Shown: positions 1-2,223 of the stretch, one piece after another | How the letters are laid out: each line of letters starts with the position of its first letter | Numbering within the stretch: position 1 is the stretch's first letter | Assembly: GCF_003334315.1 (NCBI RefSeq) | Contig: NZ_QOWR01000110.1 | Reading direction: 5' to 3' (one strand) | DNA: 2,223 nucleotides | Origin: Escherichia coli | GTDB taxonomy: Bacteria > Pseudomonadota > Gammaproteobacteria > Enterobacterales > Enterobacteriaceae | Notes under the pieces: generated by a model | Told to the model about the DNA's origin: nothing | What the model saw: the letters and a program-made list of their open reading frames with translations, nothing else | The model's database searches: none | Translations under genes and position numbers: made by a program

Positions 1-71
1 GTGCTTTTGCCGTTACGCACCACCCCGTCAGTAGCTGAACAGGAGGGACAGCTGATAGAAACAGAAGCCAC
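1..71 (-). CDS. insA: InsA (IS1 transposition regulator; N-terminal part of the InsAB' frameshift transposase), 5' fragment only: GTG start at 71..69, then 23 codons reading MASVSISCPSCSATDGVVRNGKS; the rest lies outside the window
   Basis: Minus-strand translation from the GTG at 69-71 gives the zinc-finger-like CPSC-containing N-terminus I recall for IS1 InsA. Its position, 56 nt inside the IS1 terminus, matches the known IS1 layout. Confidence 0.85.
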   Translation of the reverse strand, partial: MASVSISCPSCSATDGVVRNGKS

Positions 72-103
72 TGGAGCACCTCAAAAACACCATCATACAC
101 TAA

Positions 104-126
104 ATCAGTAAGTTGGCAGCATCACC
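104..126 (-). repeat. IS1 terminal inverted repeat (IRL), about 23 bp
   Basis: Terminal sequence GGTGATGCTGCCAACTTACTGAT (minus strand) at the inner boundary of the IS1 fragment. The 9 bp immediately outside (127-135, tcgctttaa) is the candidate target-site duplication copy. Confidence 0.8.
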
Positions 127-155
127 TCGCTTTAAATATGACAGCATAACCTTTA

Positions 156-161
156 CATAAT
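156..161 (+). promoter_or_regulatory. Candidate -10 hexamer (cataat) for cdgI in the 64-bp leader between the IS1 end and the cdgI start; no convincing -35
   Basis: cataat matches TATAAT at 5 of 6 positions, about 30 nt upstream of the ATG at 191. The best -35 candidates at 17-18 bp spacing (taaata / ttaaat) are weak. Purely motif-based. Confidence 0.25.
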
Positions 162-190
162 TTAGTTCCAGAAAACAATCATTCGGAAAA

Positions 191-1171
191 ATGATTCAGT
201 CAACACGTATTTCCATGGGGTTATTCTTTAAATATTTTTTATCGTTAACGAAAATTGATCCTGGTCAAAACTATATATCTCTACCATCAATAAAATCCAG
301 CACTCACATTGCTCTCCTTTTTATGGTTTCTATGGGTACACAAAAATTAAAAGCTCAAAGCTTTTTTATTTTCAGTTTATTGCTGACGTTAATTTTATTT
401 TGCATTACTACCTCATATAACGAAAACACAAATGTAAAACTCATCCCACAGATGAATTACCTGATGGTTGTTGTGGCTTTGTTTTTCCTTAACGCCGTCA
501 TTTTTCTTTTCATGTTAATGAAATATTTCACTAACAAACAAATTTTACCAACACTCATTTTAAGCCTTGCATTTTTAAGTGGCCTTATCTATTTAGTTGA
601 AACCATTGTAATTATCCATAAACCAATTAACGGCAGTACACTGATCCAGACAAAGTCGAATGATGTTTCTATTTTCTATATTTTCCGCCAACTCAGTTTT
701 ATTTGTTTAACCTCGCTGGCGCTCTTTTGTTATGGAAAAGACAACATCCTTGACAACAATAAGAAAAAAACGGGAATCCTGTTGCTGGCGCTGATCCCTT
801 TTTTAGTTTTTCCCCTTCTGGCACACAATCTGAGCAGTTATAACGCTGACTATTCTTTGTATGTCGTCGATTACTGTCCGGACAACCATACTGCGACCTG
901 GGGAATCAACTATACAAAAATATTGGTTTGTCTGTGGGCATTTTTACTGTTCTTTATTATCATGCGCACACGATTAGCCAGCGAACTATGGCCGTTAATA
1001 GCATTATTATGTCTGGCATCGCTATGCTGCAACTTACTTCTACTGACTCTGGATGAGTATAATTATACTATCTGGTATATCAGTCGCGGGATTGAAGTTT
1101 CCAGTAAACTGTTTGTTGTGTCTTTTCTGATTTATAACATTTTTCAGGAGCTGCAACTCTCCAGCAAACTG
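191..1171 (+). other. N-terminal integral-membrane sensor region of CdgI (multiple predicted TM helices; MASE4-like), very AT-rich
   Basis: Hydrophobic stretches such as SFFIFSLLLTLILFCITT, LMVVVALFFLNAVIFLFMLM, ILPTLILSLAFLSGLIYLV, LSFICLTSLALFCYG, GILLLALIPFLVFPLLA, ILVCLWAFLLFFIIM and LWPLIALLCLASLCCNLLLL. Domain boundaries are approximate and judged by eye. Confidence 0.6.
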
Positions 1172-1666
1172 GCAGTTCATGATGTGCTGACCAATATTTA
1201 TAATCGGCGCTACTTTTTCAACAGCGTAGAGTCATTATTGTCGCGACCTGTTGTTAAGGACTTCTGTGTCATGCTGGTTGATATTAATCAGTTCAAACGC
1301 ATCAATGCCCAATGGGGACATCGTGTGGGTGATAAAGTGCTGGTTTCAATTGTCGATATTATCCAGCAAAGCATCCGCCCCGATGATATTTTAGCGCGAC
1401 TGGAGGGTGAGGTGTTTGGCTTGCTATTTACCGAACTCAATAGTGCCCAGGCAAAAATTATTGCGGAACGTATGCGTAAAAATGTCGAACTCCTGACCGG
1501 CTTTAGTAACAGATATGATGTTCCTGAACAAATGACCATCAGTATTGGCACGGTTTTTTCAACGGGTGACACGCGTAATATCTCGCTTGTCATGACGGAA
1601 GCAGATAAAGCCTTACGCGAAGCGAAAAGCGAGGGGGGCAACAAAGTGATTATTCATCATATTTAA
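191..1666 (+). CDS. cdgI: Membrane-anchored degenerate GGDEF-domain protein, 491 aa: c-di-GMP-binding protein CdgI (formerly YeaI). It has a polytopic N-terminal membrane sensor domain (MASE4-type by recollection) and a C-terminal GGDEF domain with EGEVF in place of GG(D/E)EF and an intact RxxD I-site
   Basis: Long ORF 191..1666 (ATG start, TAA stop 1664-1666). The translation has about 8-9 hydrophobic helices in the first ~310 residues, then the GGDEF-domain hallmarks DVLTNIYNRRYFFN, RPDD, EGEVF and a C-terminal ...KALREAK... region. The length and the EGEVF motif match my recollection of E. coli YeaI/CdgI. The Shine-Dalgarno is weak (GGAA 185-188, only 2 nt from the ATG), so the exact start is less certain; an in-frame ATG at 215 is an alternative. 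Confidence 0.92.
   Translation: MIQSTRISMGLFFKYFLSLTKIDPGQNYISLPSIKSSTHIALLFMVSMGTQKLKAQSFFIFSLLLTLILFCITTSYNENTNVKLIPQMNYLMVVVALFFLNAVIFLFMLMKYFTNKQILPTLILSLAFLSGLIYLVETIVIIHKPINGSTLIQTKSNDVSIFYIFRQLSFICLTSLALFCYGKDNILDNNKKKTGILLLALIPFLVFPLLAHNLSSYNADYSLYVVDYCPDNHTATWGINYTKILVCLWAFLLFFIIMRTRLASELWPLIALLCLASLCCNLLLLTLDEYNYTIWYISRGIEVSSKLFVVSFLIYNIFQELQLSSKLAVHDVLTNIYNRRYFFNSVESLLSRPVVKDFCVMLVDINQFKRINAQWGHRVGDKVLVSIVDIIQQSIRPDDILARLEGEVFGLLFTELNSAQAKIIAERMRKNVELLTGFSNRYDVPEQMTISIGTVFSTGDTRNISLVMTEADKALREAKSEGGNKVIIHHI
1172..1663 (+). other. GGDEF domain of CdgI, approximate extent. I-site RPDD at 1376-1387 (R396-D399); degenerate A-site EGEVF at 1403-1417 (E405-F409)
   Basis: Conserved GGDEF-domain blocks read directly from the translation. 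The RxxD lies 5 residues upstream of the A-site motif, as in canonical GGDEF domains. The first G and the catalytic E of GG(D/E)EF are replaced by E and V. Confidence 0.8.
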
Positions 1667-1682
1667 GTGCAAAAATATTCAG

Positions 1683-1707
1683 AGCCATGCTTTTTGCGTG
1701 GCTTTTG
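1683..1707 (+). terminator. Candidate rho-independent terminator downstream of cdgI
   Basis: agccatgc (1683-1690) and gcgtggct (1696-1703) can form a 7-8 bp GC-rich stem (one G-U pair) around a ttttt loop, followed by a T-run (1703-1706). It sits 17 nt after the cdgI stop codon. Hand-folded; no energy calculation. Confidence 0.45.
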
Positions 1708-1764
1708 CATACAATTTATTACTATTACCCCTAAATTTCCCCTCCCCAGCGGCGCAGAGATGAG

Positions 1765-1770
1765 TATAAT
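1765..1770 (+). promoter_or_regulatory. Candidate -10 hexamer TATAAT (perfect consensus) for dgcJ; no recognisable -35 at 17-bp spacing; GC-rich sequence immediately downstream
   Basis: tataat at 1765-1770, about 77 nt upstream of the dgcJ ATG. The sequence at the -35 position (ctcccc, 1742-1747) does not resemble TTGACA. A -10-only architecture would be compatible with a sigma-S-type or activator-dependent promoter, but that is inference. Confidence 0.35.
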
Positions 1771-1828
1771 TAGCGCCCCTGTGCCAGGCCGCAATCGAAC
1801 TTTATCTGGTTTTCTCGTTTCACTAACC

Positions 1829-1835
1829 GAAGGAG
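1829..1835 (+). promoter_or_regulatory. Shine-Dalgarno sequence (GAAGGAG) for dgcJ
   Basis: GAAGGAG lies 11 nt upstream of the ATG at 1847. This supports 1847 as the true start rather than the GTG at 1667 used by the ORF track. Confidence 0.6.
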
Positions 1836-1846
1836 TGCCATTTATC

Positions 1847-2149
1847 ATGAAATTGCACCATAGAATGCTCCGGCATTTTATCGCCGCAAGTGTCATTGTG
1901 CTGACATCTTCCTTCCTTATTTTTGAACTTGTCGCCAGCGACAGAGCAATGAGTGCCTATCTGCGCTATATCGTGCAGAAAGCAGACTCCTCCTTTCTTT
2001 ATGATAAGTATCAGAATCAGAGTATTGCCGCGCATGTGATGCGCGCTCTCGCTGCTGAGCAGTCGGAAGTGTCGCCAGAACAGCGGCGCGCCATCTGCGA
2101 GGCTTTTGAGTCTGCCAATAACACCCATGGCTTAAACCTGACTGCCTAG
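1847..2149 (+). pseudogene. dgcJ: dgcJ (yeaJ) diguanylate cyclase gene, 5' fragment (first 100 codons: N-terminal TM anchor plus start of the periplasmic sensor domain), truncated by the IS2 insertion; the TAG stop at 2147-2149 is the first triplet of the IS2 end
   Basis: The ATG at 1847 with a good SD encodes MKLHHRMLRHFIAASVIVLTSSFLIFELVASDRAMSAYLRYIVQKADSSFLYDKYQNQS..., which I recognise as the N-terminus of E. coli YeaJ/DgcJ (about 496 aa full length, from memory). The frame closes at 2147-2149, exactly where IS2 terminal sequence begins, and no GGDEF domain is present in the window. Confidence 0.8.
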
Positions 2150-2188
2150 ACTGGCCCCCTGAATCTCCAGACAGTTGGTATCACTTAA
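2147..2188 (+). repeat. IS2 left terminal inverted repeat (IRL), roughly 41-42 bp
   Basis: Starts TAGACTGG and contains the CCAGACA...TATCACTTAA block shared by both IS2 ends. The candidate 5-bp target-site duplication copy is ctgcc at 2142-2146. Confidence 0.6.
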
Positions 2189-2223
2189 GTTAGTGATAGT
2201 CTTAATACTAGTTTTTAGACTAG
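2147..2223 (+). mobile_element. IS2 (IS3 family) left end: terminal inverted repeat and leader upstream of the transposase gene; the element continues beyond the right window edge
   Basis: TAGACTGGCCCCCTGAATCTCCAGACA...TATCACTTAA...GTGATAGTCTTAATACTAGTTTTTAGACTAG matches my recollection of the IS2 left end. The orfA (insC) start codon would lie about 10 nt past the window edge. Recall-based; a few internal positions differ from the IS2 sequence as I remember it. Confidence 0.8.

Follow-up and report, generated by a model that had tools for sequence, protein, structure and literature searches.

Two insertion-sequence ends flanking cdgI and truncating dgcJ in a K-12-like Escherichia coli

Introduction

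Insertion sequences (ISs) upstream of the bgl genes activate these silent genes in Escherichia coli, and IS insertions upstream of flhDC have been described as well (PMC8669472). For the diguanylate cyclase gene dgcJ (yeaJ), both a dgcJ::IS1 allele in MG1655 CGSC 7740 and a dgcJ deletion lead to resistance to phage N4 (PMC8669472). Catalytically active DgcJ is required in the N4 pathway (PMC8669472), DgcJ activates NfrB specifically (PMC8669469), and strong protection against N4 results from dgcJ loss (PMC8669472, PMC8669469). The neighboring gene cdgI (yeaI) is silent under laboratory conditions and encodes a c-di-GMP-binding protein (PMC5635695). In Shigella flexneri, cdgI is wholly missing and dgcJ is truncated (PMC11327459).

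The locus considered here carries an intact cdgI with an IS1 end just upstream and a dgcJ gene interrupted by an IS2-group element. A first-pass annotation had interpreted this arrangement as IS-driven gene decay of a kind typical of IS-expanded lineages such as Shigella and some laboratory E. coli.

Results

Source and backbone of the locus

The window, i.e., the entire 2,223-bp stretch of DNA analyzed, is identical to the whole short-read contig QOWR01000110.1 of the E. coli draft assembly GCA_003334315.1, which runs into IS repeats at both ends. On this contig the ISs are in view by their ends alone, and a repeat-bounded short contig is, by its very construction, a selected case. The distance from one IS to the other is 2,020 bp, comprising 64 bp of the yeaH-cdgI spacer, the intact cdgI, and codons 1-100 of dgcJ (Table 1). 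This backbone is K-12-like, with 3 SNPs in 2,020 bp relative to MG1655 and 2 SNPs relative to EC291, the closest complete genome (the locus is uninterrupted in both strains), whereas S. sonnei differs from the window at 13 positions and carries its insertions elsewhere. Neither junction occurs in any of the 5,426 complete E. coli genomes searched, K-12 derivatives included, so the source is not a K-12 stock. Nor is the source a Shigella. An Rfam scan of the window returned no match.

Table 1. Coordinates of features in the 2,223-bp window
Feature	Position	Strand	Remarks
IS1A left end, contig-truncated	1..126	-	126/126 identity to annotated IS1A
IS1 IRL, 23-bp terminal inverted repeat GGTGATGCTGCCAACTTACTGAT	126->104		Exact match at element end
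insA start GTG	71-69	-	Frame leaves the window at base 1 after InsA residues 1-23 VASVSISCPSCSATDGVVRNGKS
yeaH-cdgI spacer, last 64 of 146 bp	127..190	+	Colinear with K-12 locus 3001-3064
cdgI (yeaI), intact 491-aa ORF	191..1666	+	L75S vs K-12, sole substitution
GC-rich hairpin followed by UUUUG	1681..1705	+	15 nt past cdgI stop; MFE -15.5 kcal/mol, z = -3.5
dgcJ (yeaJ), codons 1-100 + TAG stop	1847..2149	+	Truncated pseudogene
CTGCC, expected 5-bp target-site duplication	2142..2146		Left copy only in window
IS3-family, IS2-group element (ISEc27 type), left end, contig-truncated	2147..2223	+	IRL + region upstream of orfA

Authenticity and arrangement of the junctions

A short contig ending in repeats is the kind of place where misjoins occur, and a chimeric joining of IS ends to a cdgI segment was accordingly considered. 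However, both junctions are found base for base, at 100% identity, in a second NCBI assembly (LYBE01000080.1) and in a Logan k=31 contig built from another run (SRR10357290), which reaches 29 nt into each IS, while the trimmed contigs of a third dataset (GCA_012531215.1) break at the same two junction points. Since the junctions recur in independent datasets, they are genuine rather than chimeric, the concern raised in the first-pass annotation is removed, and an assembly artefact is effectively refuted as an extremely improbable explanation.

The arrangement itself agrees with the earlier description: two unrelated ISs lie about 2 kb apart, one promoter-proximal and the other within a coding sequence. 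The first is upstream of cdgI, and the second interrupts dgcJ after codon 100. They belong to different families (IS1 and IS3) and face different ways, with insA on the minus strand and the IS2-like orfA expected on the plus strand, so that both left ends face inward. The presence of IS ends on both flanks might suggest that the 2-kb segment was mobilized as a unit, whether as a composite transposon or as a fragment captured by a plasmid. Nevertheless, the ends of the two flanking elements are unrelated, in line with the earlier rejection of a composite transposon, and a 36.9-kb contig of GCA_012531215.1 continues from dgcJ codon 100 onward through yeaK, yeaL, nimR, and nimT in native chromosomal order, leaving mobilization with next to no probability. 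A plasmid location was likewise rejected, as no genuine plasmid in PLSDB carries the segment; of the four matching records, three are chromosome-sized (4.8-4.9 Mb) and one measures 420 kb, and every one of them is typed as non-mobilizable.

The IS1 end and the yeaH-cdgI spacer

The IS1 end reported in the first-pass annotation, with its junction at 126/127, proved exact in position and matched IS1A throughout. It sits 64 bp upstream of the cdgI ATG and displaces the remaining 82 bp, the upstream part of the spacer. The insA start lies approximately 55 nt inside the IRL, and the gene called at 1-71 corresponds to Pfam Zn_ribbon_InsA (PF03811). A complete IS1 is 768 bp long and flanked by a 9-bp target duplication, and 9-bp duplications are seen at other IS1 copies in the same spacer. 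On the yeaH side of the element, an IS1-mediated rearrangement or deletion extending leftward may be present.

The retained spacer stretch is AT-rich (~30% GC), with a GGA preserved shortly ahead of the cdgI start codon. The yeaH-cdgI spacer represents an IS1 hot spot, in which four insertion sites fall inside a 40-bp interval; the nearest other insertions lie at -46, -69, and -86 relative to cdgI, versus -64 in the window. A consensus promoter scan of the window showed no excess of promoter-like sites over shuffled sequence, nor did it reveal a hybrid promoter spanning IS1 and cdgI. A TTGGCA is present at 113-118, but it is followed by a poor -10 element, and nothing was called there by the scan.

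The intact cdgI gene

CdgI comprises a MASE4 domain (residues 88-319) and a degenerate GGDEF domain (328-485), in which the A-site reads EGEVF at 405 instead of GGDEF, and the I-site RPDD at 396 is intact (RxxD). The protein therefore displays all domains and motifs of the degenerate MASE4-GGDEF c-di-GMP binder type. Its exact sequence (WP_087893795.1) occurs on few contigs. The hairpin downstream of the gene is likely the cdgI terminator, although a consensus terminator scan did not call it.

Truncation of dgcJ

Intact DgcJ contains a GAPES1 domain (residues 31-304) and a GGDEF domain (346-494). In the window, the gene is cut after codon 100 of 496, and the IS itself supplies the stop codon, as it begins with TAG. 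The truncated product retains the N-terminal transmembrane segment and 70 of the 274 GAPES1 positions, whereas the whole GGDEF domain is gone. Functional DgcJ requires both domains complete, and the frame here ends after residue 100; because the GGDEF domain is absent, the allele is regarded as null.

The IS2-group end in dgcJ

The left terminal sequence of the element in dgcJ (TAGACTGGCCCC...) matches ISEc27-annotated copies at 77/77 positions (E=1e-31) and, equally at 77/77, a second and different IS3-family IS2-like element from strain LH09-a. The left end of canonical IS2 matches at only 69/77 positions, and over 1,331 bp the elements that share the exact end of the window are 81% (ISEc27) and 88% (the LH09-a element) identical to IS2. 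IS2 sensu stricto is thus rejected: the earlier call of an IS2 end was correct in its position (junction 2146/2147) and its group but wrong as an exact name, given the 69/77 match to canonical IS2. The LH09-a element begins with the same 77 nt, while its interior is only 86% identical to ISEc27. The visible end therefore fits both elements alike. The same exact 77-nt end is found on 133 plasmids from Klebsiella, Citrobacter, Raoultella, and others.

Where both flanks are in view, copies of the IS2 group carry duplications of 5 bp (GTGCC, TAATC, and CATCG). In GCA_012531215.1, in which the contigs are trimmed, the left-hand contig stops at window base 2144, and the right-hand contig begins with GCC-CAT, which is codon 100 once more. 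Together with the behavior of the group, these trimmed ends are suggestive of a CTGCC duplication at dgcJ.

Fifteen guessed products of the right junction were looked up by exact sequence in a protein collection; they included fusions of IS and dgcJ reading frames (two IS types, two alleles), products of internal starts, and partials left by trimming. All of the guessed fusion forms were absent in this exact lookup, and only trimmed partials of 397 and 396 aa and a generic 376-aa internal-start product were present. Most occurrences of the 376-aa product trace back to assemblies with frameshifts or to other alleles carrying IS1. A diguanylate cyclase gene located beside the LH09-a element was considered as the missing part of dgcJ and rejected, as it has no similarity to the K-12 locus.

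Recurrence of insertions at the locus

The earlier suggestion that GGDEF genes are frequent IS targets is borne out, as dgcJ and cdgI are recurrently hit in E. coli and Shigella (PMC8669472, PMC11327459). Independent IS positions in dgcJ include codon 11 (S. sonnei), approximately codon 82 (OZ039802), and codon 100 (window), and coordinate arithmetic places further insertions ~108 nt past the truncation point of the window and near codon 334 (K-12 CP014225). The stretch harbors IS1, IS2, IS5, ISKpn26, ISVsa5, or ISApl1 in many complete genomes; in a sample of 59 complete genomes it was interrupted in three and uninterrupted in ~95%. The positions repeatedly hit in unrelated E. coli and Shigella are the 5' part of dgcJ and a 40-bp core of the yeaH-cdgI spacer.

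Discussion

The structure is very probably the outcome of two independent and ordinary transpositions that became fixed in one small, K-12-like sub-lineage of E. coli, seen on a single contig that stops in IS repeats. IS1A would have entered the AT-rich yeaH-cdgI spacer with its left end toward cdgI, and an IS2-group element, whose left-end variant circulates mainly on Enterobacterales plasmids, would have entered dgcJ, probably with a 5-bp CTGCC duplication and with its own TAG closing the frame. Both copies are assumed to be full length because only 126 and 77 nt of them are in view, and the expected 9-bp duplication at IS1 is likewise presumed. For an ordinary E. coli genome containing a few dozen ISs, a single pair separated by 2 kb is not improbable. 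With dgcJ null, the local c-di-GMP signal from DgcJ to NfrB and the N4 receptor glycan would be lost; judging from K-12 genetics, the strain should lack both and hence should resist N4-type phage. The effect of IS1 on cdgI is less predictable, as transcription may increase, decrease, or stay the same.

The reading initially proposed, in which c-di-GMP genes decay neutrally through IS activity in an IS-expanded lineage such as Shigella or laboratory E. coli, is consistent with the pseudogenized dgcJ and has parallels in S. sonnei, whose dgcJ contains IS1 and an IS3-family element, in the combined cdgI and dgcJ losses of S. flexneri (PMC11327459), in the dgcJ::IS1 allele of K-12 stocks (PMC8669472, PMC8117528), and in the six IS types that occupy the stretch elsewhere. 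However, cdgI is intact, so decay is limited to one gene and the proposal holds for dgcJ (truncated at 100/496) but not for its neighbor. Furthermore, the backbone lies 3 SNPs from K-12 and yet belongs to no K-12 stock, it departs from S. sonnei both in sequence and in insertion sites, and the great majority of sampled complete genomes have the stretch uninterrupted. The contig numbers concerned (110, 80, and 125 in their assemblies) also speak weakly against a contig total of the size usual for Shigella drafts, which is several hundred. Lineage-wide decay is therefore an improbable explanation of the locus.

It is also conceivable, if somewhat doubtful, that the insertions reflect adaptive and convergent events, wherein dgcJ loss is selected, for example because it protects against N4-like phage or raises motility, and IS1 alters the expression of the normally silent cdgI. 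The strong N4 protection conferred by dgcJ loss (PMC8669472, PMC8669469), the independent dgcJ insertions at many positions, the clustering of four IS1 sites in a 40-bp part of the spacer, and the laboratory silence and c-di-GMP binding of CdgI (PMC5635695) are all compatible with such selection. Against this, a mutational hot spot suffices to account for the spacer insertions and no clear hybrid promoter is apparent, given the poor -10 element behind TTGGCA. IS1 prefers AT-rich DNA, and because the spacer has only ~30% GC, the clustering of IS1 is explicable without selection. In addition, CsrA repression of cdgI is post-transcriptional, which also speaks against an IS1-driven change in its expression. 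The stronger proposal that both insertions are convergently adaptive, with DgcJ loss removing the N4-type receptor glycan, IS1 switching on CdgI, and natural populations rewiring a local c-di-GMP module via ISs, is an unlikely one.

Two ordinary transpositions thus remain the preferred explanation, and this kind of event is already known: it represents ordinary IS polymorphism, the knocking out or flanking of GGDEF genes by ISs is well documented, and dgcJ::IS alleles have already been tied to phage N4 resistance, so that the finding matters little alone. Its modest value lies in providing one more natural dgcJ-null allele and in highlighting the yeaH-cdgI spacer and the 5' part of dgcJ as two places where ISs insert recurrently; these sites could help to address whether phages exert selection for dgcJ loss in natural populations.

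Comparison with known systems

The IS1 insertion resembles the IS1 and IS5 cases upstream of flhDC and bgl in that the element sits in an AT-rich regulatory spacer directly preceding a laboratory-silent gene, where insertions are recurrent and independent. Those cases involve IS-mediated activation of silent or weakly expressed genes, whereas for cdgI the likeness is one of resemblance only, and a change in its expression would be conjectural. With regard to the element in dgcJ, ISEc27 copies, which share the 77-nt left end, are 1,331 bp long, generate 5-bp target duplications, and possess an orfAB programmed frameshift; the transposase of the element in dgcJ falls beyond the end of the window.

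The closest functional counterpart is the K-12 allele of MG1655 CGSC 7740, BW30270, and CP014225, which likewise has an IS-inactivated dgcJ in an otherwise K-12-like locus and for which N4 resistance is documented (PMC8669472, PMC8669469, PMC8117528). The element in that allele is IS1, inserted ~700 bp further downstream, near codon 334 as calculated from coordinates, whereas the window has an IS2-group element at codon 100 and, unlike the K-12 allele, an additional IS1 upstream of cdgI. S. sonnei is the closest counterpart in layout, likewise combining an intact cdgI and a disrupted dgcJ with one IS1 and one IS3-family element within a locus of ~3 kb on a 99.3% identical backbone. In contrast to the window, where one element lies upstream of cdgI, both S. 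sonnei elements lie within dgcJ, IS1 at codon 11 and the IS3-family element near codon 369, the latter being oriented opposite to dgcJ with its transposase ORFs on the minus strand.

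Organization of the interrupted locus

Nucleotides 127-2146 are colinear with yeaH-cdgI-dgcJ of E. coli K-12 MG1655, with no gaps and three substitutions (283, 414 and 1459), and are flanked by two unrelated elements, IS1A and an IS3-family, IS2-group element, which do not form a composite transposon. Two ORFs are present: a long one at 191-1666 (cdgI, 491 aa), and a second that starts at 1847 and stops at 2147-2149, where dgcJ is interrupted after codon 100 of 496 and its frame is closed by a TAG consisting of the first three IS bases. The first-pass annotation, which described IS1 and IS2 ends bracketing a c-di-GMP locus and IS-driven gene decay in a Shigella or laboratory-type lineage, holds in outline: alignment to IS1A, K-12 and IS2-group ends places the junctions at 126/127 and 2146/2147, exactly as proposed, and a GGDEF gene, dgcJ, is indeed pseudogenized. 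Its name for the second element, the host it implied and its decay of the whole locus do not hold, and the IS-expanded lineage it invoked is hypothetical.

Features of the window, encoded domains and IS insertions at the locus
Feature	Position	Strand or orientation	Details
IS1A left end, reverse complement	1-126	-	126/126 against annotated IS1A copy
IS1A 23-bp IRL	126->104	-	sequence match
insA, first 23 codons, running off base 1	1-71 (gene call)	-	Pfam Zn_ribbon_InsA match
GC-rich hairpin, then UUUUG	1681-1705		15 nt past cdgI stop; -15.5 kcal/mol, z = -3.5
IS3-family, IS2-group element, left end	2147-2223		77 nt
CdgI MASE4	residues 88-319
CdgI GGDEF domain	residues 328-485		EGEVF replaces GGDEF at 405; I-site RPDD at 396
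Full-length DgcJ GAPES1	residues 31-304
Full-length DgcJ GGDEF	residues 346-494
Spacer IS1	-46 from cdgI ATG		BDSF8-3, F5505-C1; IS1A and IS1B
Spacer IS1	-64 from cdgI ATG	IRL toward cdgI	the window
Spacer IS1	-69 from cdgI ATG	opposite	NH-21, EC21Z-137
Spacer IS1	-86 from cdgI ATG	IRL toward cdgI	01G17CRGN001
IS1 in dgcJ	codon 11		S. sonnei locus L044 (CBDDMI010000001.1, 2372499-2385548); duplication CCGGCATTT
IS1 in dgcJ	~codon 82		OZ039802
IS2-group element in dgcJ	codon 100		the window
IS1 in dgcJ	~108 nt past the window's truncation point		MLI106, Iso00041; arithmetic on match coordinates
IS1 in dgcJ	~codon 334		K-12 CP014225; arithmetic on match coordinates; PMC8117528
IS3-family element in dgcJ	~codon 369		S. 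sonnei locus L044

Junction support and chromosomal context

Looking up the exact CdgI variant identified the window as the whole of contig QOWR01000110.1 (2,223 bp) in draft assembly GCA_003334315.1, with IS sequence at both ends, and a short contig of this kind is the expected output of a short-read assembler between two repeats. Assembly chimerism, which the first-pass annotation had marked for checking, is refuted, as the same two junctions recur in other datasets: LYBE01000080.1 (GCA_002190225.1) matches at 100% identity across 2,167 nt, both junctions included, and among the matches listed for run SRR10357290 a k=31 Logan contig spans both junctions, reaching 29 nt into each IS. GCA_012531215.1 shares the breakpoints, with one contig trimmed at both junctions and a 36.9-kb contig that begins with GCC-CAT (dgcJ codon 100), beyond which yeaK, yeaL, nimR and nimT follow in their native order, so that the dgcJ insertion is a simple one in chromosomal context. 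The corresponding 397-aa partial product, starting at A100, and the CdgI variant have accession numbers from one TPA series. Repetition of codon 100 on the left and right contigs fits a CTGCC duplication of the 5 bp expected of IS2-group elements, other inspected copies of which have GTGCC, TAATC and CATCG.

Contigs of unrelated backgrounds (L008-L017, L024-L033) also break within 2-5 nt of this dgcJ point (window 2142-2149). Their identity to K-12 is 98.3-100%, and metagenomes as well as K-12-like runs are among the sources; left ones end in ACTGCC(CA) (91 collection blocks), right ones start with (CT)GCCCAT (70 blocks), and IS sequence is absent at all of these breaks. Other dgcJ prefix lengths mostly occur on just 1-2 contigs, with 71 and 155 aa also frequent. 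The shared breakpoint may mark a hot spot for insertion, or it may result from mixed populations or from how assemblers behave.

Identity and provenance of the IS2-group element

The second end matches canonical IS2 (the 1,331-bp reference copy that lies in cdgI in strain SCEC020023, with a CATCG duplication) at 69 of 77 positions, and IS2 is therefore the wrong name. In E. coli genomes, 103 records match this end at >=99%, compared with 5,819 at 90-95%, and exact matches are rare. The exact 77/77 end heads elements annotated ISEc27 as well as a second element beside qnrS1/IS26 in strain LH09-a; since the two share only 86% identity (81% and 88% with IS2, respectively), the window does not show which IS2-group element it contains. 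In PLSDB, the exact variant also occurs on 133 plasmids, from Klebsiella, Citrobacter, Raoultella and Leclercia among others, suggesting that a plasmid carried the element into this lineage.

Compared with each other and with IS2 (L018, 2396-3726), ISEc27 (L003, 4001-5331) and the LH09-a element (L005, 4001-5331) have the left end of window 2147-2223 in identical form despite differing interiors, which suggests mosaic or recombinant elements. The end in the window reads GTTGG where IS2 has ACCAA, resembling a small inversion. In E. coli 5270 (L003) and 07B21CPO001 (L004), ISEc27 splits an ArdC-family gene within an island of CBASS (Cap3, Cap15-type receptor, E2/UBC) and Hachiman (HamA, helicase) defence genes. 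The LH09-a chromosome (2729153-2737229) carries a plasmid-type module in which ISKpn19, qnrS1 and IS26 precede the IS2-like element with its TAATC duplication; beyond that element lie a gene for a 318-aa sensor diguanylate cyclase, then IS5 and IS1A. This cyclase gene was considered as part of the K-12 cdgI-dgcJ locus and rejected as unrelated.

cdgI, its surroundings and the host lineage

The decay does not extend to cdgI, which is intact, L75S (window 414) being its sole substitution relative to K-12. CdgI binds c-di-GMP and is repressed by CsrA; it cannot be detected under laboratory conditions, and its overexpression is toxic (PMC5635695). Upstream, IS1 has removed the distal 82 bp of the spacer and left the 64 bp beside the ATG. 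A TTGGCA lies at 113-118 in the IS1 end, followed by a poor -10 on direct reading; in the promoter scan, shuffled sequence had at least as many promoter-like sites as the window, and nothing convincing as a hybrid promoter emerged. The hairpin downstream is likely the cdgI terminator, to judge from its sequence and predicted folding; a consensus terminator scan did not pick it up, and Rfam gave no match anywhere in the window.

The backbone is not that of Shigella: an S. sonnei chromosome has 13 differences from the window across the common part, and its insertions are others, and S. flexneri 2457T lacks cdgI altogether (PMC11327459). Neither junction occurs in 5,426 complete E. coli genomes, and the segment was found on no genuine plasmid. 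The exact L75S protein is rare (~9 contigs in the collection), and the nearest complete genome, pig isolate EC291, also has L75S, with two bases different and the locus uninterrupted; both insertions are thus later than L75S. About 40 randomly placed IS copies per genome would, by simple arithmetic, give ~0.7 pairs within 2 kb, and scanning short contigs favours such pairs, so the 2-kb spacing alone is unremarkable.

Recurrence of IS insertions

The locus is a frequent IS target to a moderate degree, with IS1A, IS5 or ISApl1 within the 2,020-bp stretch in 3 of 59 evenly sampled complete genomes. Many of the best-matching records have IS1A inside cdgI, and others IS2, IS5, ISKpn26 or ISVsa5. 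In a widespread group of K-12-like genomes (e.g. DA33133, YJ4, MIN12; at least 37-38 matching places each for the whole-window query, mostly IS1), IS1A within cdgI splits MASE4 from GGDEF and dgcJ is intact. In dgcJ, too, independent insertions are spread over several sites. Independent IS1 insertions make the 146-bp yeaH-cdgI spacer a hot spot: they occupy four positions within 40 bp (window 127-190; comparison loci L001, L002, L048, L049, L050), with a 9-bp duplication in every case where both sides are visible and the IRL facing cdgI at three of the four. IS1 prefers AT-rich DNA, and the low GC of the spacer (~30%) is enough to account for the clustering in the spacer without selection. Recurrent hits at the locus could also reflect phage-driven loss of dgcJ, and their recurrence is the only mildly interesting lead from the window.

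Comparison with known dgcJ alleles

As GGDEF lies beyond codon 100, the DgcJ remnant cannot make c-di-GMP. The dgcJ::IS1 allele of MG1655 CGSC 7740 confers strong resistance to phage N4, as does a clean dgcJ deletion, and sensitivity returns only with DgcJ that is catalytically active (PMC8669472); NfrB, the c-di-GMP-dependent glycosyltransferase making the N4 receptor glycan, is a direct partner specifically activated by DgcJ (PMC8669469). The allele ending at residue 100, whose junctions and truncation are read directly here, should, on the strength of K-12 genetics, act like these nulls and give N4 resistance. S. sonnei similarly keeps cdgI intact, with dgcJ split by both IS1 and an IS3-family element. 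The event in the window is of a familiar type, and dgcJ is an established target.
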